From Candidatus Bathyarchaeota archaeon (GTDB taxonomy: Archaea; Thermoproteota; Bathyarchaeia; Bathyarchaeales; Bathycorpusculaceae): 64,000 nucleotides of DNA. The stretch is from assembly GCA_963772455.1 (NCBI GenBank), contig CAVYXJ010000012.1:176652-240651 (forward strand), read 5' to 3'. Position 1 is the stretch's first letter; each line of letters begins with the position of its first letter. Shown here one piece after another: positions 4,523 to 58,905 of this stretch. The notes beneath the pieces were generated by a model. That model worked only from the letters and a program-made list of their open reading frames with translations, was not told the origin of the DNA and did not search any database. The position numbers and the translations under genes were made by a program.

Positions 4523-4541
4523 AGTTTTTTTGTTTGTGTGT

Positions 4542-39139: not shown

Positions 39140-39151
39140 GTTCTTTTCCTT

Positions 39152-39551: not shown

Positions 39552-39596
39552 TTTAGGTGCTCGCCAACTCCAAGTGTAGGAGAACGTTGAGGGCAC
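39552..39596 (+). repeat. hairpin site H1
   Basis: TTTAGGTGCTCGC-CAACTCCAAGTGTAG-GAGAA-CGTTGAG-GGCAC. Confidence 0.85.
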
Positions 39597-39616
39597 AATT
39601 ATTCGATTAGAACATT

Positions 39617-41209
39617 TTAGAGTTTGAGGGTTTGCATAATTTTTTGATAAACATTCAGGGCACGGCCAAATATTTTGCCAATTATTCCTAATCCACTTGC
39701 CATCGCGGATAGGTTTTCGATATCGGATTTATTCAATGTTTTAGTCAACAGTGTCGCAGCCACAAACGCTATTGCAAAGAATAATGTTCCAATTATTAAT
39801 CGTATGATGCTTGAGAAACCCAACTCATTAACAAATAGATATGTTACGGTGGCTGCTGCTAAGCAGGATATTACAATTTTTGCGGATGACTTCAAATCTA
39901 CAGTTAACCCATAGTTTTTTCTTACCCAAACAACTGGAATGATTGTAGTTACGATTCCTGTTACTAATGAGGTTGTTATGAGTCCTAAAACTCCAAACTG
40001 CATGATTAAAATGTAGCCCAATGGTACACCGATGGAAACTGAGATCAATGTGAGGTATAAGATGAAGGTGGTTTTTCCTTGGCTGCTAAGAAAATTGCTA
40101 ACGCTTAAGCTTCCAAATGCTGGAAAGAAATAGGAAAGCGCAAGCAACGCTAAAAACAGTGGTGCTGAAGAGTAAGATTGTCCAAAAAGGGTTGAAACGG
40201 CTGGTTCAGCTAGGCACATAACAAGTGCAGCTACTGGAATAACAAATAGTGCGCCGTATTTGACTGAGTACTGGAAAACATTTTGCAGGGTTGTTTTGTC
40301 TTTTTGTGGATTGAGTTTGCTAAATGCTGGAAAGAGCATCATGGTGATTGGGGTTGCAAAAAACCCAATTAATACTACAAATGTTGATGCTACTCCAAAG
40401 TTGCCGATTGCAATGTTGTCTGTGACGTAGAAGATTGGAAGTAAAAAAGCGAAGTATTGACCCAGAAAGCCGGCGAGGATTACTGAAATTGATAGGGGTG
40501 CGCCATATGTTAGCATTGATTTTAGGTAGGCTTTGATTTCAAGTTTGAATTCGCCAAGTTTTGGCAAGTGTTTGTATTGGGTCCATACAAGAACTATTCC
40601 CATTAAGCCGCCAAGCATCAAGGAGACTGTGTAGCCAATTATTGCTCCGGATGTGCCAAATCCTAAAACTACTAGTCCTACCATGAGGCCTGTTTTTAGG
40701 AAGGAGTGGAAAATTAGCATAAGGCCGTTGAGTTCGAGTTTTTCTATGCCTGTGAAGGTTGCTGTGGCGGAGTTGATGAATCCGCTGGCTAAGATGGTTA
40801 TGGAGGCGATTTGGATTAATGATGTTAATTCTGGGCGGTGAAAAATGTTCACGGCAAGGTACCCTGAAAGTGAGAAACAAACAGCCGATAATGCAATGCC
40901 AAGGACTACTTCAAAGATTATTCCTGAAACAAGTATGCTTCGAACTTCAGCTGCTCGACCCTCGGATAAGTATTGGGCGGTGTCTCTAACCATTGCAGAG
41001 TTTATGCCCCAATCCCGAAACACTCCAATCAGGGTGGGGGCAACTAACACGATTCCGTAGAGGCCATAAAGGTCTGATCCTAAAAGTCTGGCTACAAAAA
41101 TTGTTGCAACGGATGAAATAACAGTTGAAATCACCAGACCCCAAAGTAAATGAAAACTACCTCTTGCTGAAACCTTCGCCATTTCCGAAGCTTTACTCAT
41201 CCTTGCCAA
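39617..41209 (-). CDS. Wzx/RfbX-type oligosaccharide flippase
   Basis: 530 aa, many TM helices, ARLLG…YGLY, D.GI..AMVR, LFPAFSKL. Confidence 0.88.
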   Translation of the reverse strand: MARMSKASEMAKVSARGSFHLLWGLVISTVISSVATIFVARLLGSDLYGLYGIVLVAPTLIGVFRDWGINSAMVRDTAQYLSEGRAAEVRSILVSGIIFEVVLGIALSAVCFSLSGYLAVNIFHRPELTSLIQIASITILASGFINSATATFTGIEKLELNGLMLIFHSFLKTGLMVGLVVLGFGTSGAIIGYTVSLMLGGLMGIVLVWTQYKHLPKLGEFKLEIKAYLKSMLTYGAPLSISVILAGFLGQYFAFLLPIFYVTDNIAIGNFGVASTFVVLIGFFATPITMMLFPAFSKLNPQKDKTTLQNVFQYSVKYGALFVIPVAALVMCLAEPAVSTLFGQSYSSAPLFLALLALSYFFPAFGSLSVSNFLSSQGKTTFILYLTLISVSIGVPLGYILIMQFGVLGLITTSLVTGIVTTIIPVVWVRKNYGLTVDLKSSAKIVISCLAAATVTYLFVNELGFSSIIRLIIGTLFFAIAFVAATLLTKTLNKSDIENLSAMASGLGIIGKIFGRALNVYQKIMQTLKL

Positions 41210-41347
41210 CTTAACCTAACTTACAAACCACAATTTTTTAAGGTTATGCTGTACACAAAAATAAGTGAAATGCAACACGTACAATTTTGGCGAATATTGG
41301 CAATAAATTTTTATTTGTCGTTTATTAGATAATTTGTCGGTGTTTGA

Positions 41348-41599
41348 GTGTCTGTTGAGGTAGGTAAGTATGGGCGTATAGTTTTGCCAAAGCGGCTCCG
41401 ACAAAAATACAGCATAAATGAAGGCAACAGACTTATCATAACCGAGTACATGGGGCGTATCTGTTTAGTCTCTGTGCAAACCCACAAGAAACCAACTCAA
41501 GCATTATATGGCTCTGTGGATCCATCCAAACCTATCGATGAACCAAAACAGTTGGCGCGAGAATACATCCGAAAAAAACTTGTTGAGGATTATCAGTGA
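41348..41599 (+). CDS. AbrB/MazE/SpoVT antitoxin
   Basis: VGKYGRIVLPKRLRQKY.I.EG. Confidence 0.88.
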   Translation: MSVEVGKYGRIVLPKRLRQKYSINEGNRLIITEYMGRICLVSVQTHKKPTQALYGSVDPSKPIDEPKQLAREYIRKKLVEDYQ

Positions 41600-41997
41600 A
41601 ACGGTTTATAGATACAAACGTTTTCATCTACACCATAACAGCGCATCCACGTTTTGGTAAAATCGCAAAAAATATTCTTGAACGCATCGAAGAGGGCGAA
41701 GCAGCTCTAACCTCCACATTAGTACTGTGTGAAGTAGCTTGGGTGCTAGAAGCAATGGGCAGACAAGGAGATATTAAAACTATACTTGAAAAAATAATGT
41801 CTTACCCGACTCTTGAAATCGTTGAAATCAGTGCAGATGATTTATTGATTGGAGCCAACAACATGACTGCCGAACAAATTGACTTCGACGATGGCGTAAA
41901 CCTTGCATTAATGATGCGACTTGGCATTTTAGAAGTCTACTCAAACGACCAGAAACATTTGGGTAAACTTGACTTTCTGAAATTGATTTTCGAGTAA
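41596..41997 (+). CDS. vapC: PIN-domain toxin
   Basis: FIDTNVFIY, LCEV, DFDD, YSND. Confidence 0.9.
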   Translation: MKRFIDTNVFIYTITAHPRFGKIAKNILERIEEGEAALTSTLVLCEVAWVLEAMGRQGDIKTILEKIMSYPTLEIVEISADDLLIGANNMTAEQIDFDDGVNLALMMRLGILEVYSNDQKHLGKLDFLKLIFE

Positions 41998-42005
41998 ATA
42001 GATTT

Positions 42006-42156
42006 CACCCTGCGATAAATATGGGTGTGCGCGAGAAGCTAAATACAAACTTGGAAACAGCTACTTCTGCGACGACAAGGCAGTGAGTCATTCAAAGAAG
42101 TCGCCAATAAATGCCGTGCAGGAAGGGTTGCAATGATTGAGGATCTAACATTGTAA
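42006..42156 (+). pseudogene. 3' remnant 1 of a primase-helicase gene
   Basis: HPCDKYGCAREAKYKLGNSYFCDDKAVSH matches the C-terminus of 53235-55828. Confidence 0.8.
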
Positions 42157-42355
42157 GATCACAGATAAGAAAAAAGTCTTGAAAATATTCTTAAAAGAGA
42201 ATAATAATTGGCGATAGATTTTTTTGTTAGACAAAAGAGTACCCAAAAAGATGAGCGCTGAATTTTTGATTCTACATTATTCTCTTTTGTGATATGTTGT
42301 TATTTTTTGAACTTACCTTTAATATTTAATATTTAATCATGGTATTTGATTTAAA

Positions 42356-42595
42356 ATGAGCAAAACAAAAGCTCGAAAGCATTCGCCCAAGAGGAATTTG
42401 CCAATTATAAAGTGTGAATGTGGTCACAAGATTCTTTTGATTCCTGATTTGAAAACTATGGGAAGAGCAATTGAAGACCATGCCTTAGAACACAAAAACA
42501 AATATGTTTTAACCAAAGAAGAAACTGAGGATTTCGAAAATGCTTTGATCATTCAGGCTTTAGAGTTGATTTTTTCTAATCAAAAAGAATTCTGA
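42356..42595 (+). CDS. small putative zinc-binding protein, paralogue of 20855..21079
   Basis: LPIIKCECGHKILLIPDLKTMGRAIEDHALEH. Confidence 0.7.
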   Translation: MSKTKARKHSPKRNLPIIKCECGHKILLIPDLKTMGRAIEDHALEHKNKYVLTKEETEDFENALIIQALELIFSNQKEF

Positions 42596-42639
42596 TTTGA
42601 GATTGATATATAGTTAGAATTCATCAGGCTGCTGGAAAA

Positions 42640-42999
42640 ACTGTTCACAAAAATCTAAGCTTCGCTAACGAAAATATTTGCGATGAGAAAAAACCTGCGG
42701 TACCTGCGGTGATTGCGGTGCCCAACAAAAATAGTAATGAAAACAATGGCAAATCTGCTGAGTGGCTAATACCTCATGAACCAATACACTACCACAAACT
42801 GCCGCCAAATGAACCGCATCCATGCGACAAATATGGGTGCCCAAGAGAAGCCAAATACAAACTCGGCAACGACTACTACTGCGACGACAAAGCAGTCAGT
42901 CATTTTAGAGAAATAGCAAAAAAATGCCAGGAAGATGGCTTTGAGCTATTCGAGGACACACAATTTTATGATGAATTCAAACTTCGAGAACACGACTAA
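42640..42999 (+). pseudogene. 3' remnant 2 of a primase-helicase gene, retaining three iterons
   Basis: EPIHYHKLPPNEPHPCDKYGCPREAKYKLG..YCDDKAVSHFREIA; CTGCGGTA/CTGCGGTG/TTGCGGTG at 42695-42720. Confidence 0.85.
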
Positions 43000-43012
43000 C
43001 CATAACAAAATC

Positions 43013-43360
43013 TCATTTAACCACATCTACCTTTTCTTCCAAAATAAATCGGCGATAGTCCTTAAATGAACGTTGAATAGAATTGATGCTTACTTTGAAA
43101 AAACGGCTCACAACGCGTCTTGATACATTGTCGGGAGCACCAAGAATAACAGCACCATTGCATGCAAGACAAGCCTTGATTAAACTGACCTTTTTCCCCG
43201 AAAAGAAAAACCTATCCTTCTTATGAATTAAGTCAATCCAAGAAATAATTTTCACTGCAATTTCTGATGTGAAACCTTAATTTGTTAATTCATCATAAAA
43301 TTCTAGTGGATTAATCCTTTCAAAAGATTTCGTTCGTATGATTTGCATATCTTTCTCCAT
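43013..43360 (-). pseudogene. hypothetical gene with an internal stop; weak resemblance to a cyclin/TFB repeat
   Basis: ATG at 43360 is in frame with ORF 43013..43255 across one TAA. Confidence 0.35.
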
Positions 43361-43592
43361 CAACCCTTAAAGATGCAACCCACAAAAACAAAATATAAGG
43401 TTAAAACCAAAAACACAATATATCTAGAAAAACAACCCCAACTTTCTATTTTGTTGTTAATAATATCAGGTTGTCTTATTGAGATGGCTTAATTCTTTAA
43501 AAAAATATATTGCAATTTAGATGATTGTTGCAGACCCAAAATATTTAAGTAGTACTTTTAATCAAGGTTGTACCTAAAGCTGAGGTTGTACT

Positions 43593-43820
43593 ATGGATGC
43601 TCTAGTTACCCGCAAAGGTCAAGTCACCATCCCAGTTGAATTAAGACGTCAATACAAAATAGTAGAGGGCATGAAATTAACCGTCGAAGATTCCCCTTCA
43701 GGCATAGTTTTCAAAGTTATTCCAAAAATCGAGGACCTAGCTGGCGTTGACGCACAAAAAATCACTATACAAAAAGCTTATGAAATCATAGATAAAATGC
43801 GCTCCCAAGACAGATACTAA
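43593..43820 (+). CDS. AbrB/MazE/SpoVT antitoxin
   Basis: VTRKGQVTIPVELRRQYKI.EG. Confidence 0.9.
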   Translation: MDALVTRKGQVTIPVELRRQYKIVEGMKLTVEDSPSGIVFKVIPKIEDLAGVDAQKITIQKAYEIIDKMRSQDRY

Positions 43821-43821
43821 C

Positions 43822-44226
43822 ATGCAAGCCATAATAGACACCAGATTTTTAGTTACACATTTTCTTGCCCCCGATGAAGAAACAAAAAAGTGGACCAAAA
43901 CAACACTTGAAAATCTTCAAAGAGAACCTAACTTGGGAATCATACCCTCCATAGTAATTCATGAGTTCTACAAGTTTGAAATGCAAACCCTTGGAGTAGA
44001 CATTGCTAACATTAGAATCAACATTGTATTAAAATCAAAATTAGCTGTTTCTAACTTGGATCCAGATATTGCCATTGAAGCTGCAAAATTAAGATGCAGA
44101 TATGCAGACTTACCCACAGCAGACGCCATAATTGCGGCTACCGCCATCAAATCATCATCTAATTTTGTTCTAACAGACGACAAACACATTAAACAAATCA
44201 AAGAAACCAAAACCAAGTGGATATGA
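43822..44226 (+). CDS. vapC: PIN-domain toxin
   Basis: IIDTRFL, IHEF, TADAIIAATA, TDDKH. Confidence 0.9.
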   Translation: MQAIIDTRFLVTHFLAPDEETKKWTKTTLENLQREPNLGIIPSIVIHEFYKFEMQTLGVDIANIRINIVLKSKLAVSNLDPDIAIEAAKLRCRYADLPTADAIIAATAIKSSSNFVLTDDKHIKQIKETKTKWI

Positions 44227-44622
44227 ATGGTAAGCAAAAAACTAAGTAGATGACCTAGCTGAAAAACTAGAAGCTCAAGCTCTTAAACAGAATTTAGATG
44301 TTGAAAAAATCATCGATGAGACCGCAGAAGGAGAACTTTGATTTTTTTTTGAAGCTATAATTATCCTGGGGATTATGTTGGAGAAAAAAGGTTAATCTAC
44401 CGCTATTATTGTTTTATTCACTGGGTTTCTTGATAAAATGTAATTAAATCTGTGTCATACCCTGTTGTTGGATAGCTCTTTTTTGGAGGTTCTCATATTC
44501 GAGCTGTCGGACTAAATTAAGCATTCTTTTTCTGTAACTATTTTTCAACGTTACCTTTGCCGAATCCTGAACCGTTTCAACCATCGACATCATTGTAAAA
44601 AAAGGCAAGAAACGGCGGAAAC

Positions 44623-44663
44623 TTTAGGTGCTCGCAATATCGTTATGAGAATTATTGCGGCAC
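44623..44663 (+). repeat. hairpin site H2 (divergent, with compensatory stem changes)
   Basis: TTTAGGTGCTCGC-AATATCGTTAT-GAGAA-TTATTGC-GGCAC. Confidence 0.75.
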
Positions 44664-44732
44664 AGCTCTAAAAAAAATTTTTTAAGGAAAGAAAAAAAAG
44701 AATATTTCCCAAAATATTTGAGTTTTTTTAGG

Positions 44733-45029
44733 TTATTGTGTTGGCTTTGGTGGTTCGTCTTTGTTTTGTTCGGTTGTTATTTCTTCGATTGGTTTTGGAG
44801 GAGGCGTTGTTGCCATTGTATAACCTATCCATGCGCCTATGAACAAGATAGCTACGAAGGCTATGAATACTGGTGTAGCAATGAGCCAGAATCCAACATC
44901 AACGCTTGAGCCAATGTTTAGCCAAGGTTGAATTAACTGCGGATAACCAAATAGTGCAACTAGGTAAACTACGGCGACGACTACGCAGACTGTTAGTATT
45001 GCTCCGCCTATTGCTTGATCTTTACTCAT
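44733..45029 (-). CDS. conserved-type archaeal two-TM protein
   Basis: MSKDQAIGG…AWIGYTMATTPPPKPIEEI; GGTG ribosome-binding site upstream. Confidence 0.8.
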   Translation of the reverse strand: MSKDQAIGGAILTVCVVVAVVYLVALFGYPQLIQPWLNIGSSVDVGFWLIATPVFIAFVAILFIGAWIGYTMATTPPPKPIEEITTEQNKDEPPKPTQ

Positions 45030-45303
45030 ACTTTTTCACCACCTAAAGCTATAGAATTAATTGTTATCGAATCATTACTAGCATATTAACTCTATTCTTT
45101 TTTCAATAGTATGTCGTTTTGGTTTGAGATTTTTTTTCTTTGTTCATCAGAGGTGGCCTCTATTTAATTTTTATTAATTTGGCGGTTTTTGGCTTTTGTT
45201 TTTTGGTTGTGTATTTCTGTTCTTCTTGTGGATGGATTTGACTATCATTACTCAATGTTTATTAATACTTACGACACATGATATAAAATTAGGGAATAAC
45301 ATA

Positions 45304-45753
45304 ATGAAAATCACAAAACCACCAAGCATAGCAATAATCGCCCTAGTAATAACTGCTCTCGCCCTAACCCTAACAACAGCAGCAGTCCTAAGCAATAATC
45401 AAACCGTTCCATTAAACGGAACAATAAACGCCGTAAACCTTGGCGTATACACCGACAGCGCATGCACCATACCCGCCACAGCCCTAAACGTTGGAACCCT
45501 CAACCCAAGCAGCACAGCAACCCAAACAGTCTATATCAAAAACACAGGCAACATAGCAGAAACACTAACCATGACAACAGGCAATTGGAACCCATCCAAC
45601 GCCAACACATACCTAACTCTAACCTGGAACCGACAAAACACAGTCCTAAACGCAGGAGCATCAATCCAAGCAACCCTAACCCTAACAGCAGCAGCAAACA
45701 CCGGAAGCCTCACAACGTTTGGCTGCGATGTAACACTAACAGGCACGCAATAG
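45304..45753 (+). CDS. small secreted Thr/Asn-rich beta-sandwich protein
   Basis: Hydrophobic N-terminal helix, VYIKNTGN motif, two Cys. Confidence 0.7.
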   Translation: MKITKPPSIAIIALVITALALTLTTAAVLSNNQTVPLNGTINAVNLGVYTDSACTIPATALNVGTLNPSSTATQTVYIKNTGNIAETLTMTTGNWNPSNANTYLTLTWNRQNTVLNAGASIQATLTLTAAANTGSLTTFGCDVTLTGTQ

Positions 45754-45876
45754 ACTTATTTTCATTTTGCAAAACTCAAAAAATTAGTTTCCGCTTGAGT
45801 AGCTGTGGGAGGGTGTTTTTTTATGTTGTTTGGGGAATTTGTTGTCGCGCGCTAAGTTTATATTTTACCCAATTAT

Positions 45877-46561: not shown

Positions 46562-46600
46562 CAACTAATTTTTCCATTAAAGTTTCTTTTTTGAAGTGCG

Positions 46601-46850
46601 TTGTCTGTTAGAAGAAGAACAGGTGTTTTTGCACTTTGCAATCAGGTTTGGATTAGCTTGGTTTTGTTAAACGGGCTTTGGAGGGCGTTTTGGTTGCGTC
46701 TGCAAACGTCACCTTCCGCCTCGTTTCGGCTACCCGAGGCAAGAAGCAATTGGATGTTCCCAGATACTGCCAAAAAAAGTAAGCGCAGACAAGTTTAGGT
46801 GCTCGCCTACCCCCAGAATAGTGGAGAATGATGACGGCACAATTACTTTC
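46601..46850 (+). repeat. leader repeat A plus hairpin H3 (46794-46840)
   Basis: Core TTGGTTGCGTCTGCAAACGTCA; aligns with copies B-F. Confidence 0.9.
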
Positions 46851-46964
46851 GAATTACTTACCTTTTTTGAGAAATTGCGAACTCTCCGACTGCTTTTTGA
46901 ATATACAAAAACTACAAAAAGATCATCAGCAAAACATATGCTCCCGAGTCAAGAAAGAATGAAA

Positions 46965-47442
46965 ATGCCTAAACGAGTTTATTTAGATACAAACGTTTAC
47001 TGCAGACCCCTAGACGACCGAAGGGAAAGTCGCATTAGCACGCGAAAACGAAGCCTTCTTAAAAATCGCAGAAGGCGCTGAAAGAGGAACAATAGAGATA
47101 GTAAGCTCTGACTATGTAAAGTTAGAAATCGAACAAATCAAGGACCCCTTAAAAAAGAAAAACATAAGGGGATTCGAGAGAGTCCTATGCAAAACCAACG
47201 TAGCCAGCAGTAAACGATTAATCGCCATAGCCAAAGAAATCAATGTGAAATGCGCACTCAATTCTTTAGACGCCTTGCACTTGGCAGCAGCGTGTATAGG
47301 CAAAGCGAATTTCCTGCTAACCTGCGATGACGAAATTTTAGACAACGCTGCCTGTATTGAAACAATCGCGGCAAACAAAGGGTATAAGTTAAAAGTTAGG
47401 GACCCAATAAATTACATACAGGAAAACTGGAGAGTGAAATAA
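46965..47442 (+). CDS. PIN-domain toxin, one frameshift near 47040
   Basis: VYLDTNVYCRPLDD … LDALHLAAA…FLLTCDD. Confidence 0.8.
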
Positions 47443-47445
47443 AAA

Positions 47446-47652
47446 ATGGCGACCTCGCATATAGCTACAGTCGAAGTGCCCTTTGAAGCCTTAGTAAAAG
47501 AACTTGGAACAAAAAGAGCCGTAGAATTCGTAAGCGAAATCAAAGATTGCTATGGCGACTCCGTTGTTGAACTAAGAAAAGCCACTGAAACTCTCACAAT
47601 AGAACAAATTGAAGCAGAAGTCAAGAATCTGAAAAAACAAAGAAAAATCTGA
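47446..47652 (+). CDS. probable antitoxin downstream of the PIN toxin
   Basis: EALVKELG…AVEF…GD; 68 aa, starts 3 bp after the toxin stop. Confidence 0.65.
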   Translation: MATSHIATVEVPFEALVKELGTKRAVEFVSEIKDCYGDSVVELRKATETLTIEQIEAEVKNLKKQRKI

Positions 47653-47746: not shown

Positions 47747-48100
47747 TAGACAGCATATTTACTTAGAACAATGCTGATTTCAAAAAACCTTACAAATTCA
47801 TAAAAGCAATAAATCCATTCGTATAACAACTAATTTTTCCTTTCAAGTTTCTGTTTTGGAGTGTATTGTCTATTGGAAGAAGAACATGTGTTTTTGCATT
47901 TTGCAAAAAGGTTGGGTTTAGCTTGGTTTTGTTGAACAGGCTTAGGAGATCTCTTTGGTTGCGTCTGCAAATGTCACTGTTCGTCTGCCAAAGGCAAGAA
48001 AAGAGGGATGTTTTAGTTGCTGCCAAATCAGATAGGCGTAGTCAGGTTTAGGTGCTCGCCAAACCCAGATTATGGAGAATGATGACGGGACAACTAATTT
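47747..48100 (+). repeat. direct repeat of 46485-46850: vapC 3' remnant, leader B and hairpin H4 (48047-48091)
   Basis: Colinear alignment by eye; the vapC remnant has a GAG>TAG change. Confidence 0.9.
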
Positions 48101-48164
48101 CTAATGAGTCATCATTTTGTGAAAAAATTGTGGATCAAGAAAAATTTGCCTTGTGGTTGAACAT

Positions 48165-48539
48165 TTAAACTATCTTTATGTTTACGTCATCTATGTAAGC
48201 GAATTTTTGGTCACGTGTAAACAAGGTTTCATCGTTGGCAAGTGAAATTCCTGCGATAAGCAAATCGTTTTCGTTGATCATCTTTCCAGTTTTGCTAAGC
48301 TTTTCAAAAAGTAAAGCCGCCTTTCTGGCGGAGGCTCTGTCGAAAGGACAAACTATTATCGCCGACAAAAATTTTTCTGCGACCTGCCTTTTTAGTTCAG
48401 TCTTATGCTTGAGTAATTCATACTCTGTTATAGTTGTTGTTTTGATTTCTTGTTTCTCAGCTAGTTCCTTTATTATGGAAACAATCTTTTCATCGCCCGC
48501 TAAAAAGTCTATTATAACACTTGTATCGATGAAAGTCAT
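48165..48539 (-). CDS. vapC: PIN-domain toxin
   Basis: FIDTSVIIDFL, EYELL, ENDLLIAG, TRD. Confidence 0.9.
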   Translation of the reverse strand: MTFIDTSVIIDFLAGDEKIVSIIKELAEKQEIKTTTITEYELLKHKTELKRQVAEKFLSAIIVCPFDRASARKAALLFEKLSKTGKMINENDLLIAGISLANDETLFTRDQKFAYIDDVNIKIV

Positions 48540-48543
48540 ATAC

Positions 48544-48768
48544 TCACGTCAATGCTCTTCCGTTATTAGCCTCTCTTTCGGCTGTTATTTTAGATTTCAA
48601 TAGCTCAAGCTTCTGCTTGTCGCCTTTCATGACTCCTGCAAAGCTCATGATATCCACTTGTTCCTTTGAGCATAGATTCTCCTTTATTACCTGTGAAAAG
48701 CTCTTTTTACCTTTTCTTTTTGATAGAAGCTCATAAACTTCATTTGAGACTGAAATCTGTCTTGACAT
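48544..48768 (-). CDS. vapB: archaeal VapB-type antitoxin
   Basis: MSRQISVSNEVYELL..RKG.KSFSQVI. Confidence 0.85.
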   Translation of the reverse strand: MSRQISVSNEVYELLSKRKGKKSFSQVIKENLCSKEQVDIMSFAGVMKGDKQKLELLKSKITAEREANNGRALT

Positions 48769-48852
48769 CCTAAACCGTCCTACATACATAATGTATACAT
48801 GCCATTTATTTAAATTGCTTTGATGGAAAGGGTAAACAATCGCCCCATGCTC

Positions 48853-49051
48853 CTTTGCACTGTGCAGCGTCAGGTTTATTCTGGGTTGGTTTTGTTGAAC
48901 AAGCTTCGGAGATCATTTTGGTTGCGTCTGCAAATGTCATGTTTCGTCTACCAAAGGAAAAAAAGGAGAGATGGGTGCCTGCTAAATCAGATAAGCATAG
49001 TTATGTTTAGGTGCTCGCCAACCCCAGAATAATGGAGAATGATGACGGCAC
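48853..49051 (+). repeat. leader repeat C plus hairpin H5 (49006-49051)
   Basis: TTGGTTGCGTCTGCAAATGTCA … TTTAGGTGCTCGC…GAGAATGATGACGGCAC. Confidence 0.9.
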
Positions 49052-49111
49052 ATTTTCTTTAAGATAGAAAAATGAGTTAATTTACTAAGAATCGTTGGTT
49101 TTGAGCGTATG

Positions 49112-49330: not shown

Positions 49331-49564
49331 ATGGTAACTCGTAAGTTCACAGTTCTTCTTGAACCTGCCGAGGAAGGCGGTTTTGTCGTTAAATGTTTAG
49401 AGCTTCCAGTTGCCTCTCAGGGTGAAACAAAGCAAGAAGCCCTTAAAAACGTAAAGGAAGCTATAGAAGGCTATCTAGAAGTTAAAACTAAGCTTTTAGG
49501 TCGGAAAGTTAAGGGTGAAAAGGCTGAAGTAATTGTCGAAGCTCCCTCTGCTCTCTTGGCGTGA
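49331..49564 (+). CDS. hicB: HicB-family antitoxin
   Basis: EEGGFVVKC.ELP..SQGET..EAL.N..EAI. Confidence 0.9.
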   Translation: MVTRKFTVLLEPAEEGGFVVKCLELPVASQGETKQEALKNVKEAIEGYLEVKTKLLGRKVKGEKAEVIVEAPSALLA

Positions 49565-49752
49565 AGTTGTTAAAGCCCTTGCAAGGAGCTGGTTTTCGAG
49601 TGGCTCGGCAAAAAGGAAGTCACATAATTCTTTTAAAAGATGACATAGCTGTGCCTGTTCCAAAACATGACGAAATAAAAAGAGGATTACTTATTGAAAT
49701 TATTTCAGAAGCTGGTTTGACGAAAGAGGAATTTTTGGAGCTAACAAAATAA
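49533..49752 (+). CDS. hicA: HicA-family toxin, one frameshift near 49586
   Basis: MSKLPLLSWREVVKAL/GFRVARQKGSHIIL…VPKHDEIKRG. Confidence 0.85.
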
Positions 49753-50013
49753 AAAGGGAGAATAGCAGTTAACTGCTATCTTAACTGCTACTTATAGTCG
49801 CTTAAAATTAGGGAAGCTATTGTGTTTCTTGAAGACCTCAAAGCCTACAAAGTATGCTCTTAAAGCTGCTTATTCACCCAACGCATCTAATACTGCCACG
49901 ATAAAGCAATCAGCCACTTCGTTGAGATTGGAAAAAAATGCCCGAAAAGAAGACTTTAGGCTAATTGAGGGTGTGCAGATGCATGATGTTTAACTGCTCA
50001 ATTTGGAGTTATC

Positions 50014-50245
50014 TTGAAGAAGTAGAAGTTTTGTTGCAGCATTTTTTTGATTCAGCTTGTTTTAAGTTGCTTTTGTTGAATAGGCTTTTGAGGGCGTTTT
50101 AGTTGCGTTTGCAAACGTCCTGTTCCGTCTACCGAAGGCTAAAAACGGAGGGATGTTCTAGTAGCCGTTAAATATTATGAGCGTAGTCAAGTTTAGGTGC
50201 TCGCCAACCCCAGACCAGTGGAGAATGATGAGGTACAACTACTTT
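50014..50245 (+). repeat. leader repeat D plus hairpin H6 (50192-50236)
   Basis: TAGTTGCGTTTGCAAACGTC … TTTAGGTGCTCGC…GAGAATGATGAGGTAC. Confidence 0.88.
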
Positions 50246-50543
50246 TAAATTATTATTTTTCTTTTATTTGGAACCTCAGCATCAAAACTAAATTTAGGGG
50301 GATGATTGAATGCTTGATGTGAACGTTCATTTGTTTTTCTCCCGACAAAATTTAACGATAGACTACTCTGAATTCATAGTTGAATTAACAGAGCTGCCCA
50401 AACCGTAGCTTTCATAAAGCTTAGCTAAACGTTCCTGCTCGGATACCAAGGATTCAACCATCTTTTGTGCGTGTTCACAGTGTTAGTGGAAATGCTTGTA
50501 TTCCCTGTTAATTCTCTTGTCGAAATTAAACCGCTATTTGGTT

Positions 50544-52318: not shown

Positions 52319-52510
52319 CGCGATCTTCCTCAGTGAATGGTTTTATTTGGTTTTTGGCTATGCCAAAGCCTTTGTCTAGGGCTGTTTTGCGTTGTTTTTT
52401 GACTAGTATTTGGATTGTTTCGTCTAGATTTTGTGCGTTTAGTTTTTCACGTAGGTTTTCAAGTGTTTGGGCAGTTTTTTTTGAAACCCGAATGGTGGTT
52501 GTGTCGTTCA
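52302..52510 (-). CDS. vapB: VapB-type antitoxin
   Basis: TTIRVSKKT…L..L; overlaps the vapC start. Confidence 0.8.
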
Positions 52511-53234
52511 TAAATATCTGCAATTTGTTTCTTGCATACAAGTAGATATGTATATCTGTTTTGTAAGTAGTCTACCCATTAAATAAATCCGAATTTGCAA
52601 AATAGTACGCCTTTGTTTATTTTACCACCTGGACAAGGTTTAGGATAAATCTTGTTTTATTAACAAGCAGCGCTATTGGCCAATCCTTATTGAGAACTCA
52701 ATTGAAAAAAGAAAATTGTTTTCTCAATTGTCTGCTCTTACTTCTAAAGATTAGTTTGGCGTTGTTTTGTGAGATTCTATGACTTTTCTCCCGCACGTGA
52801 CTACAAAGTCAAGCTCTACACTAGCGAAAACGACTTAAGAGAGCTAAATTCCGTTTGCTCTATCTAGCTAAACTGACTTTGAAATAAAGAGCTCATCGCA
52901 GCTCTTTCCCCGCCAAAAAAATAACCTGCTTAGACAAACACACTGCAATAAAAATGAGCGCAAACTGAGAATTTGACTTGAATTAGCAGGTTACATATGC
53001 TCAAATGGGTGATGTGTGTTTTTGACTCAGGAAAAGCGCAGTTTTTGAGAGGTAGTTAATAAAGTATTTTGTTGTTTTAAAGTTGTTTGTTTTTCATTGT
53101 TTTATTTAAACAGTTGTTTTCTAGCTACGTGATTCTAGCTATTAAATTCACGCAAAATAAGTTATAAGGATAGATAACAGTCTGGCAATCTATGGAGCTT
53201 TATCGTTTAGCGAAAATGGGTTGGATGCTTTGGG

Positions 53235-55828
53235 TTGACAATTGTTTTTGATGTAAAGGAGCTTTATTTTGTTTAAGCAGGCCCATCCAAGCTGGGTTCT
53301 CTTGCTGGGTGATAAAGCGAAGAATCCTTCTCGTCTTGTTGGCGCTTGGAAGGAGATGACAAGTCAATCGATGGAGGAGTTGCAAGCTCTTGTTGAAAGA
53401 GTGCAGAGAAGTGAGGTTGAGGCTTGGAATTTTGGTCCACGTTCAGGTCTTAATGGTTTAGCTTGTTTGGATTGGGATTGGGAATTTCTGGCTTACTGCT
53501 GGAGCAAACATTTTGGCGAACGAGCTAAGACCCTGACGTTTCGAACGCCCAATATGGGTTATCGTATGCTCTACACCACTAATGAGAAGGAGAATAGCAG
53601 CCCATTCAAGCGACATTTGCATATGGAGTTTGAGAACGGCGGCTACGTTGCTGTTGGGGGTTTTGCGGAAGATTGCGAAGGCAACAAACAACCCTACACA
53701 AAGATAGCTGATGTTCCAATAAAGCTCGATAATTCCATCATTGCGGATACAAAGAAATTTCTTAATGAACAGTTGGGACGGTATGATTTCTTGCGTTTCA
53801 ACTGCGTATCTGCTGTCGTGGACAAAAAACATATTCGGTTGGATCATTTTCAGCGGTTAGCGGTTGTGCAGTTTATGGTGTCTAAGGATTTTTTGGATGA
53901 AGAAATCCATGACTTCTTCAAAACAATATATCAAGGGGATGGTAAGCGGGTTTATGATTTTGGGATAACTCAGTCGCAGATTTCAAGTGCGAGAGGCTTT
54001 CGTGCAGGAGGCGGCAGACCTAACCCCTGTAGCAGCTAAGACTAATCCTGAAAATGGTCGAATTAGTACGCCGTTGTTTCAGATTTTTGGCTTCGATCAT
54101 GAGAAATGTAATGGTTGTCTTCGTAAGGAGAAGGTAAAAAATGAAGTTAAGCAAGGAAAAGACCGGTTATTGGAGCAGGTTTTGGAGCGGTTGCGTTCTG
54201 AATTTATTTTTAAGACGCCCACGGATTTGCGGGACTTATTCTATTATGAGGATGGGATTTACAAGCCGGCGCAATGCAAAATTGAGGGGTTGCTTGAAAA
54301 AGAGTTAGGCGCCCAGGCATCAGCTCATTTTGTTAGTGAGGTTTTGGAGCATTTAAAGCATGGGAGCTATGTTGAGCGCTGTGAATTTAATCGGTTTGCA
54401 GGTTTTGTTCCTGTGCTTAATGGGTTGTTGAATTTGACTTCTTTGAAGCTTAAGCCGTTTGATTCAAACGTGATCTTTACCTACAAACTCAATGTGTGCT
54501 TTAACGCTGAGGCTAAGTGTCCGCGGTGGCTGGGTTTTTTGGATCAGATTTTGCCCGTTGAGGATCAGCCGTTGCTTCAGGAGTATTTGGGTTATTGTAT
54601 CTTGCCTGCGATGCCAAAGCATAAGGTTATGTGGTTTTATGGGTTGGGCAGAAATGGCAAAGGGCAGAGTAATCGCCACGTTAGAGGCCATTGTTGGTGT
54701 TGAGAATTGTAGTTATCTTCAGTTAGAAGAGTTTGATGGTGATCACCGTTTTGCGGTTGCTGGGTTGTATGGCAAGATGGTCAATGTTAGCAGTGAACCC
54801 TCAACGGTGACTGCGCTTCAAACGCCGCTGCTAAAGAAAATAACTGGAGAGGATACTTTGGATGCTGAAGTTAAGGGTAAGCAGAAGCGGCTTAGTTTTC
54901 GAAATGTTGCCAAGCCTTTTGTGTTGGGCAATGAGTTTCCCAGGGTTAGTGATACAAGTTTGGCTTTTGAGGACCGCACCTTGATCTTAAAGTTTCCTAA
55001 TTCGTTTGTGGGTAAAAATCAAGTTGACAACATTGAACGTAGTTGGCTTGAGGATTCTTTGGAGGTTTCGGGGATCTTTAATTGGATGCTTGAGGGCTTG
55101 CATCGTTTATGTTCGAATGGCGATTTTACTTTGAGCCGAACTACGCAGGAGGTTATTTTGGAGTTTAAGCGAACTTCAGATCCTATCGGTGCCTGGATGG
55201 AAGACATGTGCGTTTTCGATGTCGCTGGGTTTGTTTCTCGGAAAGCTGCCTTTGAAGACTACAAGAATTATTGTGATGAGGAACTTGGAAAGGCGCCTGA
55301 GACCGAACGCCGATTCTACCAACGCCTGCGAGATACCCCCAAAGTCAAGGATTATGAAAGCAGCAAAGAAAGGGGCTTTAAAGGCATAAAACTAAAAAAC
55401 GCCGTCGATAACGATAAACTTGATGGAGCAGGGCAAACCCAGTTAGCAGCCACCCCAAGTACCACAGTTACCACAGATGTTTCTAACTGCCAAAAATTCG
55501 TAAGCTCCGCTGAAGATAAAAATTTTCATGTTGAAAAACCTGTGGTATCTGAGGTAGCTGTGGTAGCAGACAAAGAGAGTGAAACTCAGCAAATTGGTGG
55601 GCTTACAAAAACTGCTCTAATAAATAGCGAACCAATCCACTATCACATATTGCCGCCAAACGAGCCGCACCCTTGCGATATGTACGGTTGTTCTCGAGAG
55701 GCCAAATACCATTTGGGGAAAGCTACTATTGTGATGACAAAGCGGTGAGTCATTTTAGAGAAATTGCAAACAAATGCCATCAAGAAGGCTTTGTTTTAAT
55801 TGAGGATTTGATGCAGCTTGACGTCTAA
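53235..55828 (+). CDS. plasmid/phage-satellite replicase: bifunctional PrimPol, PriL-CTD-like domain, D5/P4-type SF3 helicase and C-terminal Zn finger; frameshifted
   Basis: NFG..SG…LDWD, RTPNMG, GGYV; Walker A GLGRNGKG; LLKKITGED, GNEFP, R.LILKFPN; ORFs 53269..54039, 53987..54703 and 54492..55748 are colinear. Confidence 0.85.
55451..55565. other. candidate replication origin (inverted iterons around an AT-rich spacer)
   Basis: CACCCCAA/TACCACAG/TACCACAG, 63-bp spacer, then CTGTGGTA/CTGAGGTA/CTGTGGTA, all at 9-bp period. Confidence 0.6.
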
Positions 55829-55839
55829 CATTTTGAACT

Positions 55840-56000
55840 GTTTCTTTAAAAGAAGAACAAGTGTTTTTGCACTTTTCAAAGAAGCTTGGTTTAAATTGGT
55901 TTTGTTGAACAGGCTTCTGGAAACCTTTTTGGTTGCGTCTGCAAACGTCAGCTTTAGGCTGCCAAAGGTTGACGGCGGAGGAGTGTTCTAGTTGCCGTTA
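55840..56000 (+). repeat. leader repeat E (no hairpin; runs directly into the double-AbrB gene)
   Basis: TTGGTTGCGTCTGCAAACGTCA…GTTCTAGTTGCCGTTAA. Confidence 0.85.
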
Positions 56001-56270
56001 ACTGATCGCGTCTTCTTTAAGACACGGCTGCAGAGGGGTAATCGGGTGCAAGTTCCAAAGTATGTCAGATGGCACTACAAACTAGAACCAACCCAAATCC
56101 TACAAGTAACAGTAACCATTCTTGGAGTGTGGTCTTCTCCGCAGAGTTTTCTCTCCAGAATAAGCAAGGACGGAAGAATAGTAATACCCAAACTTGCAAT
56201 TACGATATTGAAAAACGACAAACCCAATCTAAATAATCATGTAGCTGAAGTTAGGCTTGATCCACTCTAG
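55992..56270 (+). CDS. tandem AbrB/SpoVT-like DNA-binding protein
   Basis: Two units: RLQRGNRVQVPK.VR and RISKDGRIVIPK. Confidence 0.75.
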   Translation: MPLTDRVFFKTRLQRGNRVQVPKYVRWHYKLEPTQILQVTVTILGVWSSPQSFLSRISKDGRIVIPKLAITILKNDKPNLNNHVAEVRLDPL

Positions 56271-56534
56271 TTTAATGTGAGCTATCTTCCGTTGGGTATT
56301 CATTCCCAATTCTTTCTCCATAATACTTTCTACCTAATTAAAGAAGAAAAGTGTAGAGTGTTCAGTTATAAGTTCGGAAAGGTTTTTTAGAAGAATTGTC
56401 TCGATGCTTATTTTTCATATCTTATAAGTTGCCGAGTCTGAAGTCTAATAAAATGGTGTCAGTGGTGATAAAAACTTGCTAAAGCAGCAGGGAGCCTGAG
56501 GAGTGCAAACATCTAAATCTTAATTTCGTTTATT

Positions 56535-56768
56535 TTACAATAATTTAAGAAAATCTTCTTTTGTGATGTTTGCTTGTCTAAGTATAGATTTTAATGTTCC
56601 AGTTGCCAATTCACGGTGATCTGGAACAATAACTATCAAAACTTTTCCATTAAATTTCTTTTTGAGTTTGATATGGCTGCCTTTTTTACTGTTAACTTCA
56701 AAGCCTATTTTTACTAAGGCTTTAATCGCTTTTCGACCTGAGATTACCGGAAGAGCCACTAATATCAA
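56535..56768 (-). CDS. hicA: HicA-family toxin
   Basis: LPVISG…KAL.K.GF…KGSHIKL…VPDH.EL..GTLKSILRQA. Confidence 0.9.
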   Translation of the reverse strand: MILVALPVISGRKAIKALVKIGFEVNSKKGSHIKLKKKFNGKVLIVIVPDHRELATGTLKSILRQANITKEDFLKLL

Positions 56769-56982
56769 CCTTTACAATAGTTACCATCGGGGCTTCGGCT
56801 TTAGAGGGTTTTTCAACGTCTGGGTCTTCTAAATATAATTCTAGTGCTTCCTTGAGGTTTTTTATGGCTTCTTCAACATTTTTGCCTTGACTAGCAATAT
56901 CATACTCTGGGCATAAGGCCACGTAAAAGTTATTTTCTTTGCGAATAATAGCTGAAAGTTCTAAGGTATCAATTATCTGCAT
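56722..56982 (-). CDS. hicB: HicB-family antitoxin
   Basis: YVALCPE.DIASQG..VEEA..NLKEALELYLE. Confidence 0.9.
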   Translation of the reverse strand: MQIIDTLELSAIIRKENNFYVALCPEYDIASQGKNVEEAIKNLKEALELYLEDPDVEKPSKAEAPMVTIVKVDISGSSGNLRSKSD

Positions 56983-57045
56983 AAATTAACCTTAAATGTT
57001 TACGTTGTCTTTAAAATAAACCTTCGCTCTAAGGAATTATATTGT

Positions 57046-57623
57046 CTGCAGAATTTTCTTTCAGGAATAAGCAAAGATGGACGAATAGTAATACCCAAAC
57101 TTGCAATTACGATATTGAAAAACGACAAACCCAATTTGGATAATCATGTAGCTGAGGTTAGGCTTGATCCACTTTAGCTTGATGTGTGCTATCTTCCGTT
57201 TGGTATTCGTTCCCCATTCTTTTTCCATAATACTTCTAGTTGATTAAAGTAGTAAGGTATAGGAGTATTCAATTGATATAATTCCAATTAGTTTTTTGGG
57301 AGAACCTCCTGGATTGCCATTTCAGAGGAGGAGTAGGCACTTAAGCAAAATTAAGAATTCTTCTCTAGTCAGCCCTGCTTGTTGAATTATTGTTAAAAAG
57401 TGTCTGTTAAAAGAAGAACATGTGTTTTGCATTTTGCAAAAGGTTTGGTTTAGTTTGGTTTTGTTGAACAGGCTTTGGAGATCTCTTTGGTTGCGTCTGC
57501 AAACGTCACGTTCCGTCTGCCGAAGGCAAGAACACAGGGATGTTTTAGTTGCCGTTAAATGAGATACGCCTAGTCAGGTTTAGGTGCTCGCCAACCCCAC
57601 GTCGTGGAGAATGGTGACGGCAT
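57046..57623 (+). repeat. second copy of the double-AbrB 3' half and downstream DNA, hicA stub, leader F and hairpin H7 (57579-57623)
   Basis: Aligns with 56139-56395 and 58507-58905. Confidence 0.9.
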
Positions 57624-57719
57624 AAAAGAAGAAGAAGTCTATTCGTTTGGTTATCTTTGCATCTGCTGTGGTTATGCCGCTCTGGGAAAAGGAAATGTCG
57701 GAAAGTTTAAATGTAAAAC

Positions 57720-58037
57720 TTGGTAAATTGTTATAGGGTTCTAAAGTTGGAAAATCAGGCTGTCGTAAAAAATAAAAGTGAAACTATAGCGGAAGGGCGA
57801 GGCGAGGTTATCGTAAAGAATAAGGGGCAGGTCACTATCCCCGCGAAAGTTCGAAAGAAGTACAATATTGACGAAGGAACTCGCCTTGAAATGGTCGAAA
57901 CAGAAGAGGGCATAATACTTAAGCCTAAAAAGTCAATATGGGACATGATTGGAGCCTTCTCAGACTTAGCATCTGTAGAAGAGATGAGTGAGAACTGGTA
58001 CAAGCTCAGGCATGAAAAGGATGTTGACGATGAATAA
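57720..58037 (+). CDS. AbrB/MazE/SpoVT antitoxin (start uncertain)
   Basis: KGQVTIPAKVRKKYNIDEG. Confidence 0.88.
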   Translation: MVNCYRVLKLENQAVVKNKSETIAEGRGEVIVKNKGQVTIPAKVRKKYNIDEGTRLEMVETEEGIILKPKKSIWDMIGAFSDLASVEEMSENWYKLRHEKDVDDE

Positions 58038-58416
58038 AGCAGCAGTCTATGACACTAGATTTTTCATCGAACTTTATAATTCAAAAGATGAATTGACAAA
58101 GAAGAAAGCGAGCAAAGAGAAGCAAAGAAAAAAGAGATATGTTTCGGCAGTAGTTGTCCATGAATTGTACAACAACTCCCTATCCAAGGAAGGACGGGAA
58201 ACTGCGAGGTTAAAAGTGGCGTTTCTCAAGAAAGAATTTGAGATCATTCCTGTCGATGACCAAGTCGCAGAGGTTTCAGCTGAACTTCGGCATAAATATC
58301 ACTTGTCCATGGGCGACAGCATGATCGCTGCCACAGCATCCGTGCTAAAAGCAACCTGCATTACAGACGACCCGCACTTCAAACAAATCAAAGAAATCGA
58401 AACCAGCTGGATTTAA
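58030..58416 (+). CDS. vapC: PIN-domain toxin
   Basis: VYDTRFF, VHEL, SMGDSMIAATA, TDDPHF. Confidence 0.9.
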   Translation: MNKAAVYDTRFFIELYNSKDELTKKKASKEKQRKKRYVSAVVVHELYNNSLSKEGRETARLKVAFLKKEFEIIPVDDQVAEVSAELRHKYHLSMGDSMIAATASVLKATCITDDPHFKQIKEIETSWI

Positions 58417-58441
58417 TTGTAAATATCAATGCCTATTCAGC

Positions 58442-58905
58442 TTTAGGTGCTCGCCAACTCCATGTTAGTGGGGAGAATGATGACGGCACAACTACTTTCT
58501 AAATACTCTTTCAAGAATAAGTAAAGATGGAAGAATAGTAATACCCAAACTTGCAATCACGATATTGAAAAACGACAAACCCAATCTAGATAACCACGTA
58601 GCTGAAGTTATGCTTGATCCGCTCTAGTTTAATGTGAGCTATCTTCCGTTGGGTATACATTCCCATTCTTTTTCTATAACACTTCTAGTCGATTAAAGTA
58701 GTAAGGTATAGGAGTATTCAATAGAGATATTCCAGATAGTTTTTTAGAAGACATCCTTAATTGTCATTTCAGGCGAGAAGTAGTCACTTAAGTTAATTTA
58801 GAAATTCTACTCTAGTCAGCTTGGATTATTGCTAAAAAATGTCTGCTAAAAGAAGACAGGTGATTTTGCACTTCACAAAAGGTTTGGTTGAGTTTGGTTT
58901 TATTA
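58442..58905 (+). repeat. hairpin H8 (58442-58489), third copy of the double-AbrB 3' half and truncated leader G
   Basis: TTTAGGTGCTCGC…GAGAATGATGACGGCAC followed by AGAATAAGTAAAGATGG…. Confidence 0.9.

Follow-up and report, generated by a model that had tools for sequence, protein, structure and literature searches.

A co-oriented hairpin-capable element marks junctions at which toxin-antitoxin arrays differ between genomes in a genus of Bathyarchaeota

Introduction

To our knowledge, no system for the storage and reshuffling of gene cassettes is well understood apart from the integron, and in Archaea only canonical attC arrays have been reported. Sedentary chromosomal integrons have homogeneous attC sites, of which the Vibrio cholerae repeats are an example. 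The ends of insertion sequences (IS) of the IS200/IS605 type and repetitive extragenic palindromes (REPs) are imperfect hairpins with an extrahelical base and conserved flanks. The pdif (Xer) sites of Acinetobacter plasmids have 28-bp cores with a 6-bp spacer, and they alternate in orientation. As far as the nine sites in Data S9 of Ghaly et al. (2022; PMC9668308) represent them, archaeal integrons use canonical attC sites, all nine of which start with ..TAACAA and end in GTTAGGC-like boxes. The entry in the same source for a permafrost assembly of Bathyarchaeia, genus PALSA-986, gives 14 attCs on six contigs and no IntI. Here, we describe an element, named H, that occurs in eight co-oriented copies among toxin-antitoxin (TA) pairs and other small modules of Candidatus Bathyarchaeota archaeon (assembly GCA_963772455.1, hereafter G000; 2,445,428 bases in 24 contigs, 92% complete). 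The DNA analysed, referred to as the window, is the last 64 kb (64,000 nucleotides) of contig CAVYXJ010000012.1 (C12). A preliminary description of this DNA, made from the sequence alone, had taken the eight sites for non-canonical recombination sites that build TA cassette arrays and are served by a dedicated system in trans. No description of element H was found in the accessible part of the literature.

The arrays of H resemble attC arrays, and more particularly clusters of attC sites lacking integron-integrases (CALIN), in that the sites are co-oriented, hairpin-capable and about 1 kb apart, enclose small modules that are rich in TA genes, have no adjacent integrase and mark where arrays differ between genomes. 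Integron arrays are recognised by at least two co-oriented sites less than 4 kb apart, and H sites are arranged in this manner. However, H is without the RYYYAAC...GTTRRRY boxes that pair at the base of attC. Its ends read GTTTAGG on the 5' side and GCACAAC on the 3' side, which is the reverse order compared with the attC boxes, and they do not pair. A crude scan of the whole genome for complementary R boxes together with L boxes found none, and an attC-like pattern run over 120 genomes scored at the level of reversed controls. The alignment and these box scans bear out the view that H is non-canonical and lacks attC boxes. Whereas the genes of integron cassettes are mostly co-oriented and have the site at their 3' end, gene direction in H arrays is unbiased. 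H arrays also differ from attC arrays in being without IntI, in that no single crossover point is seen, and in the conservation across species of the stem sequence itself. With the sedentary chromosomal integrons, H arrays have in common a lineage-restricted chromosomal location, very similar sites and many TA cassettes, and they differ from these in the same respects as from attC. The ends of IS200/IS605 elements and the REPs, with their associated tyrosine transposases (RAYTs), are like H in the imperfect hairpin with an extrahelical base, a folding that may be strand-specific in H as well and the conserved unpaired flanks, but H copies are clustered and co-oriented, not dispersed, and no Y1 transposase or TnpB was found in the genome. 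Miniature inverted-repeat transposable elements (MITEs) have terminal inverted repeats and target-site duplications and are dispersed in both directions, unlike the clustered and co-oriented H. Sites of the pdif type share with H that they are short and flank small modules, which often carry TA genes, and the enzyme acting on pdif is encoded elsewhere. Sites of the Xer/dif type have two arms of about 11 bp around a fixed spacer of 6-8 bp. In contrast to these and to pdif, the arms of H are about 10 bp long and lie 22-28 nt apart around a variable centre, and all copies are in direct orientation.

Results

H is a conserved, co-oriented and genus-restricted element at which the arrays of different genomes differ. 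In the window, the 13-mer TTTAGGTGCTCGC is present in exactly eight copies, all on the plus strand, starting at positions 39552, 44623, 46794, 48047, 49006, 50192, 57579 and 58442. A scan of the window confirmed that these lie on one strand and that the first 37 kb has none, as previously noted. A ninth match, at 42031 on the minus strand, has 2 mismatches and lacks the rest of the motif. Dinucleotide-preserving shuffles of the sequence had a mean of 0.95 matches, and nine or more were found in 0 of 100 shuffles. In the whole assembly of 24 contigs, the eight copies of the window are the only matches with 0 or 1 mismatch. A covariance model of H, named R1, was built from 52 copies. When used to scan the assembly, R1 returned the same eight copies at 48-84 bits, and no scatter through the genome was seen. 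The sole match outside the array is a weak one at C1:44915-44983 (27.9 bits), which is without the outer stem. As the window ends with the contig, the H array may extend past the contig end.

The 13-mer is the core of a longer unit of about 75-100 nt, H, which consists of an imperfect hairpin and conserved flanks. Conservation starts about 14 nt before the 13-mer (consensus GCnTAGTCAGG) and ends about 25 nt past the hairpin. On the 3' side, the hairpin passes into CAACTACTTTCTAAT, followed by an AT-rich tail, as seen in the alignment of the 8 window copies and then of 52 copies from related genomes. The motif of the preliminary description is real but was drawn too short, since the flanks are conserved and copies H3 to H7 are preceded by a module of about 180 nt, named module A. 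Other readings of the element were examined and rejected. A 17-codon mini-ORF (open reading frame, ORF) inside H was dropped because the lengths of the loop differ by non-multiples of 3, and C/D-box and K-turn readings of the AATGATGA loop were dropped by eye because the partner box is absent. Partial copies of H tend to cluster in breaking near model position 30-33, and this clustering was judged to be an artefact, in which the local alignment stops at the variable loop.

The distribution of H is narrow. R1 found H in 45 of 120 genomes of the genus and, in an even draw of the order, in 1 of 138 genomes outside the genus, which belongs to a sister genus. A 380-nt query made of module A and H (A+H) matched 8 of 61 genomes, namely G000 itself and 7 of 36 genomes from its genus; among 24 genomes drawn from eleven further families it had no match. 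H copies were located using nhmmer in 19 stretches (about 628 kb), namely the window and 18 stretches from 13 other genomes. These contain 146 copies, in a single orientation in 18 of the 19 stretches, while in the remaining one 3 copies face 5. Neighbouring copies are separated by a median of 1,479 nt, with quartiles of 964 and 3,920 nt (127 intervals).

Among named genome records, a 15-mer was present at several loci per contig only in those of Candidatus Bathyarchaeota archaeon; its single matches in unrelated bacteria were discarded as chance matches. A 21-mer of the 3' arm occurs on 28 short metagenome contigs. After exclusion of a duplicate contig, 26 metagenome loci with H contain 37 ORFs of at least 110 amino acids, of which 18 are TA toxins. 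By family, these 37 comprise 14 PIN, 2 HepT, 2 DUF3368 and 3 YdjM proteins, 4 from other families and 12 without a family, and there is no recombinase among them. None of the metagenome loci exceeds 94% identity with the window. Together with the Pfam scans of the window, they support the link between the sites and TA modules that had been proposed. Among virus contigs, 25 loci have the 15-mer and 0 have the full H element, and the A+H unit has no match in plasmid or phage collections. No sequencing run shared more than 0.17 of the sampled window words. Contigs of two RNA and two DNA runs give a patchy cover that comes from relatives, and their joints only hop between copies of module A; the RNA contigs, the only form in which RNA was aligned to the stretch, do not single out H under this patchy cover.

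All genome comparisons are between species, at 80-99% identity. The flanks of 131 near-complete H copies were compared in 7,896 between-genome pairs, in which a neighbour was counted as shared if it had at least 80% identity over at least 350 nt and reached H. The upstream neighbour alone is shared in 44 pairs and the downstream neighbour alone in 27, while 0 pairs share both; the 44 and 27 pairs are not independent and come from 36 and 37 distinct copies, respectively, in 13 genomes. In 6 pairs with one homologous flank the other flank was ambiguous, mostly with module A upstream, and in 761 further pairs, which had no homologous flank, one side or both were ambiguous. Where arrays of different genomes have homology blocks in common, the ends of these blocks often fall inside H. 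The stretch of module B (38609-39601) illustrates this arrangement. It has seven further copies elsewhere, at 83-88% identity, and H follows module B in 8 of 8 copies, while H is found within 50 nt before module B in only 3 of 8, and the neighbours differ. Module B is located before H1 in the window and in the middle of the array in a related genome.

Chained alignments revealed 32 insertion/deletion differences between arrays, in copies that are related and non-independent. The junction of the short form falls on H in 12 of the 32; by our own arithmetic, H with 40 nt on each side occupies about 3.5% of the sequence. Three cases are clean, and in these a single H stands opposite 3, 3 and 5 H copies with modules between them. 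Breakpoints do therefore map to the motif, as the preliminary description had anticipated, both in these 12 differences and in the one-sided sharing of flanks.

The position of the switch within H was read by pairwise inspection of copies, which are not necessarily the true parents. Following the MazE/PIN module of H8, the H copies of three genomes are identical through ...TTTAG, after which they diverge, one at once and two after GCCAAC. In the closest pair, the upstream MazE/PIN modules are 98.4% identical, and the following H is nonetheless not identical. In another family, rare variants of the 5' arm (GGGAC, GCTAAC) travel with the upstream module. In one pair, the downstream modules are 99.86% identical, and the H copies have four differences between TTTAGG and GGCAC and are identical only from GGCAC on; several pairs with a common downstream module become alike only past the conserved tail. 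The three clean cases of one H against several each change from left-like to right-like sequence at another place, these places being the segment TTTAGG..CAAC, the region that separates the arms, and the 3' arm. The crossover placements, as deduced from these alignments, do not appear to fit a single fixed point in H. A single crossover point within the 13-mer, where junctions had been expected before, does not appear to agree with the placed switches, which are scattered over the 5' arm, the loop and the 3' arm.

The fold of H can be described as three stems with one extrahelical base and a loop that is variable in length and sequence, and the alignment of copies agrees with the earlier description in this respect. 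In the 52-copy alignment, standard pairs account for 76.8% of 983 stem cells on the plus strand and for 86.9% of 977 on the minus strand, where the main helix reaches 94.2% and the inner helix 88.9%. The better pairing of the minus strand through G-T pairs had been pointed out; the gap between the strands comes mostly from two positions that are T.G on the minus strand and C.A on the plus strand, in 47 and 42 of the 52 copies. At the other stem positions, wobble variants are about equal between the strands (56 vs 50 cells, summed from the pairing tables). The letters of the stems are themselves at least 90% conserved, and not the pairings alone. Stems are kept despite changes on both arms in H2, which has the alternative stem CGCAATA/TATTGCG reported earlier, in a partial copy with the outer stem GAGC/GCTC, and in the copy of the sister genus. 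H4, H6 and H7 have one outer-stem change each, also as reported. The covariation of the H stems, which had been proposed as a check, was not above the shuffle control (score 0.119 vs 0.113), and 106 of 500 shuffles reach the observed score.

RNAalifold predicted no structure for a short alignment of the minus strand. For 33 full A+H units it gave a weak consensus of -4.3 kcal/mol on the plus strand and -5.2 kcal/mol on the minus strand, and the latter prediction recovers two of the three stems. When folded as single-stranded DNA (ssDNA), 3 of the 4 copies tested were no better than shuffles (z -0.6 to +0.5), while H2 was better (z -3.8 and -3.4). Folded as RNA, the minus strand adopts exactly the proposed hairpin at -15.1 to -17.7 kcal/mol (z -1.5 to -2.4), whereas the plus strand does not take it (z -0.2 to +0.2). 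A hairpin on the minus strand is thus plausible and locally supported, and it is not statistically established. Scans of Rfam gave 0 matches at the gathering threshold in the window and, at E<=5 over 39000-59500, four chance-level matches that are all away from H, so that H matches no Rfam family. Of 131 copies, 76 have a run of at least five T residues in the 57 nt that follow H, compared with 20% of random windows. An intrinsic terminator would be a hairpin with a T run behind it, placed at the 3' ends of genes, but the flanking ORFs meet H by their 5' and 3' ends about equally.

Pfam scans confirmed the absence of a recombinase from the window, and PF00589 has no match on contig C12. In the genome, PF00589 has one intact weak match, a 369-residue ORF on contig C6 (26-27 bits), and two fragments. 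Homologues of this ORF were found in 43 of 120 genomes of the genus. By our own count, H is present in 23 of the 43 genomes with a homologue and in 22 of the 77 without. G012 and G029, which are the genomes richest in H, have no match to the ORF at E<=1e-5. Three arrays lie inside large contigs, and the flanks of two of them contain no recombinase. No H-like site was found next to the C6 ORF of G000 or next to its copy near an array in G103. In G000, there is no Y1 transposase (PF01797, 0 matches) and no serine recombinase family, and TnpB (PF07282) has one sub-threshold match only; the absence of these three from G000 is not proven, because the genome is 92% complete. PF01797 also has 0 matches in 4 of 5 H-rich genomes. 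The search for a co-occurring recombinase thus found Y1 neither in G000 nor in these four genomes; the tyrosine-type gene is somewhat commoner with H and has no match in G012 and G029 at this threshold. The dedicated system served in trans, as first proposed, is not favoured by arrays without an adjacent recombinase (two of the three internal ones), by variable crossovers and by a gene direction that is unrelated to H.

Module A was found by self-comparison of the window as a conserved repeat directly 5' of H3 to H7, and a sixth copy is without H (Table 1). A coding function of the module was rejected, since even the most open of its six frames is uninterrupted in 6 of 34 copies only. The lengths of the module differ by non-multiples of three, and the variability of its columns has no period-3 signal (power ratio 0.09; entropy by phase 0.69/0.76/0.74). 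Because module A is noncoding, ORFs whose stop codon is the TAG of the 13-mer represent chance frames. Where H is missing, module A runs into a conserved frame, and the TTG at which this frame starts is among the final bases of the module. This frame has exactly 92 codons in 7 of the 14 copies in which the start motif was found, including the one in the window. The 92-codon protein belongs to no Pfam family. Its one PDB match, a weak one, is to 2glw_A (E 0.031), a chain of 92 residues that we take to be an AbrB-like swapped-hairpin barrel. Because copies without H run into the conserved frame, module A corresponds to the region upstream of a small gene family together with the first codons of the gene, and in A+H this start module is followed by H instead of the gene. 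By eye, the 92-codon protein has two GRIVIPK/QVPKY-type motifs in the style of AbrB. In one related genome, the gene family forms tandem units of 1.54 kb. Another repeat family corresponds to the 3' part of a small cysteine-rich ORF without a Pfam family, which ends in ...LIEDL.QLD(I/V) and a stop codon; it is found at 42006-42144, 42778-42956, 49887-49970 and 55629-55807, and many genomes have it immediately 5' of module A.

The genes between the H copies of the window are listed in Table 1. One TA pair had been assigned to each of the short intervals, and this is correct for the VapBC, HicBA and MazE/PIN pairs but not for H3-H4, which holds a frameshifted PIN gene and an ORF without a family. 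This PIN-type gene (46966-47442) has its frameshift after about 35 codons, and a 68-codon ORF comes next. The segment 47429-47743 is covered, with almost no differences, by contigs of RNA libraries from two studies. The D5-type primase-helicase region of H6-H7 is 86% identical over 3.2 kb to part of the array of a related genome; it is perhaps frameshifted, and it resembles what an integrated plasmid or virus would leave behind. Fragments of polysaccharide genes and a membrane flippase, identified with Pfam, are also found between H copies of the window. The arrays of other genomes are likewise located among glycosyltransferase, epimerase, flippase and YdjM genes, and in a single-contig genome a lone H directly follows an epimerase gene. 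The direction of the genes bears no relation to that of H: among 570 ORFs of at least 70 amino acids inside arrays, 236 have the same direction as H and 334 the opposite one. Upstream of H, the closest ORF is on the plus strand in 60 cases and on the minus strand in 67, and downstream in 44 and 81; all these counts rest on crude, mechanical ORF calls.

A scan of the window for transfer RNA (tRNA) and transfer-messenger RNA genes found none. The first 37 kb contains 27 ORFs of at least 100 amino acids, of which 13 have no Pfam family and none is a recombinase. In the segment 60177-62869, polysaccharide genes are apparently in pieces, with a short epimerase fragment and two Polysacc_synt_C ORFs, and the UDP-GlcNAc 2-epimerase gene is split into two ORFs (61540-61995 and 61935-62225). 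Large genes for PQQ/beta-propeller surface proteins have common 3' ends, 67-83% identical, at 4496-5035, 24866-25496, 28982-29473 and 36542-37089, and tandem repeats are present at 10622-11190 and 21169-21401. Genes of the YdjM family of membrane proteins are found at 59007-59567 and 14962-15879; in several genomes and metagenome contigs (metagenome loci L219, L220 and L224; locus L186 in the array of a related genome), a YdjM gene lies 0.7-1 kb downstream of H in the same direction.

Table 1 Positions of H copies, modules and genes in the window.
Feature	Position	Strand	Basis or remark
H1	39538..39610	+ (folds better on -)	exact 13-mer; R1 63.7 bits
H2, alternative perfect stem	44609..44677	+	exact 13-mer; R1 48.3 bits; fold z -3.8
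H3	46780..46854	+	exact 13-mer; R1 77.9 bits
H4	48033..48105	+	exact 13-mer; R1 84.1 bits
H5	48992..49065	+	exact 13-mer; R1 83.0 bits
H6	50178..50250	+	exact 13-mer; R1 77.9 bits
H7	57565..57637	+	exact 13-mer; R1 64.7 bits
H8	58428..58503	+	exact 13-mer; R1 79.6 bits
Module A fused to H3	46586..46779	+	window self-comparison
Module A fused to H4	47851..48032	+	window self-comparison
Module A, partial, fused to H5	48845..48991	+	window self-comparison
Module A fused to H6	50012..50177	+	window self-comparison
Module A fused to H7	57399..57564	+	window self-comparison
Module A, gene-bearing form without H	55846..56004	+	runs into 92-codon gene
92-codon gene ('abrX') preceded by module A	55992..56270	+	weak PDB 2glw match; no Pfam family
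3' fragment of 92-codon gene (57045-57177) and flank, upstream of module A/H7	57045..57400	+	self-comparison
3' fragment of 92-codon gene (58507-58751), flank and first 68 nt of module A, directly after H8	58507..58907	+	
Module B: DUF3368 PIN-like + UPF0175/RHH pair, before H1	38609..39451	-	Pfam
Frameshifted PIN gene and small ORF without family, H3-H4	46966..47652	+	Pfam
VapC (PIN)/VapB pair, H4-H5	48165..48789	-	Pfam
HicB-like/HicA pair, H5-H6	49331..49752	+	Pfam
D5-type primase-helicase region, overlapping ORFs, H6-H7	53269..55748	+	Pfam D5_N; DUF5906 + Pox_D5
MazE/PIN pair, H7-H8	57720..58416	+	Pfam

Discussion

We tentatively read the eight sites as copies of an exchange junction, H, with recombination between H copies that serve as portable homology, and we give this reading a probability of about 0.4. 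The element, with its conserved 5' flank, its imperfect three-stem hairpin that pairs best on the minus strand and its AT/T-rich tail, is set unidirectionally along a variable chromosomal island beside genes of glycan synthesis, and its copies would be the junctions where small modules, mostly TA pairs, are gained, lost and re-ordered. The longer composites of module A and H may take part in such recombination as well. Within an array, recombination between direct repeats would delete or duplicate modules, while recombination between a resident H and H-flanked DNA of relatives would insert or replace them. We favour a homology-driven process, probably of the RadA type, over a dedicated site-specific enzyme because the crossover points vary, no enzyme is linked to the arrays and gene direction is irrelevant. 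The hairpin with its oligo-T tail may additionally insulate the modules transcriptionally.

A number of observations weigh against this reading. The majority of the insertion/deletion differences (20 of 32) are not at H, and several of them are at the start of module A. The identity of H copies is 0.730 within a genome and 0.708 between genomes, which is a weak homogenisation if exchange within arrays is frequent. Mutation or conversion may have blurred a crossover that was once fixed, because all the comparisons are between species. In G103, an integrase-like gene that is 61% identical to the C6 ORF is located 5.6 kb beyond the last H, at the border with core genes. Homologous recombination on its own gives no reason for the strand bias of the hairpin, for its extrahelical base and for the strict co-orientation, nor for the way in which unrelated TA families each gained H. 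In addition, the recombination is deduced from the comparison of sequences and not from a directly observed event.

The strand-biased hairpin, the strict orientation and the presence of H on unrelated TA families would be better explained if H were an ssDNA recombination site of a new integron-like cassette system, in which a putative enzyme encoded elsewhere reads the folded minus strand and excises or inserts a module together with its H. We regard this as somewhat unlikely, even though the three stems with an extrahelical base between conserved unpaired flanks, the preservation of stems through two-sided changes (H2, the partial copy and the copy of the sister genus), the constant side of H on module B in 8 of 8 copies, the clean differences of one H against several and the patchy distribution within one genus all point in its direction, as does the somewhat higher frequency of the tyrosine-recombinase-like ORF in H-bearing genomes. 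A recombinase is lacking in the window and beside two of the three internal arrays, G012 and G029 have no match to the tyrosine-recombinase-like ORF, and no Y1 was detected in G000 or in 4 of 5 H-rich genomes. Furthermore, the crossovers differ, with 98.4% identity upstream or 99.86% identity downstream not accompanied by an identical H, covariation is not above shuffles, ssDNA folds are no better than shuffles except for H2, and gene direction is unbiased. It is accordingly doubtful, though possible, that H, as a folded single-strand site unlike attC, belongs to a separate archaeal invention analogous to the integron, which would capture and reshuffle TA and other small modules in a chromosomal island of soil Bathyarchaeia. 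H could instead be mainly an element of transcription or RNA, either a terminator or insulator hairpin with an oligo-T tail or an RNA hairpin of the minus strand. It would then be carried by self-contained modules, whose boundaries fall on it only because unrelated neighbours have no other sequence in common. The RNA of the minus strand folds as proposed and that of the plus strand does not, T runs after H are above background, and A+H looks like a promoter-leader joined to a terminator. Nevertheless, there is no consistent relation of H to the direction of the flanking ORFs, the RNAalifold consensus is almost nil, Rfam has no match, the stem sequences and not only the pairings are conserved, and the RNA contigs do not single out H, all of which makes a main role of this kind unlikely.

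The D5-type primase-helicase between H6 and H7, the integrase-like gene at the edge of the G103 island and the co-oriented repeats of nested length (H, A+H and longer) would also suit duplicates of an attachment (att) site, left by serial integrations of mobile elements that have since decayed to TA genes. Such an origin is improbable given that most intervals are of about 1 kb with a TA pair only, that no integrase lies beside two of the three internal arrays, that no tRNA is present in the window and no tRNA or intact gene containing H is identifiable as the target, and that the full element occurs in 0 of 25 virus-contig loci and A+H is unmatched in plasmid and phage records. The least probable reading, a miniature transposable element or an end of the IS200/IS605 or REP type, accounts for the imperfect hairpin, the extrahelical base and the conserved flanks, but it is already largely refuted: H is not dispersed, eight of nine matches being in one 19-kb stretch and all in the same direction, no Y1 or TnpB was found in the genome, and 4 of 5 H-rich genomes are without Y1.

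An abundant archaeal genus of soil and peat thus has arrays with an integron-like layout and TA cargo, but with a lineage-specific site and no integrase. If it is true that an enzyme serves H, this would be a second, independent invention of cassette capture. If H acts through plain homologous recombination, a short portable repeat alone would be able to make a chromosomal region a platform on which modules are exchanged. In both cases, the movement of defence and addiction modules in uncultured archaea becomes accessible to testing through a 75-nt site, the polymorphisms defined here and the 45 genomes.

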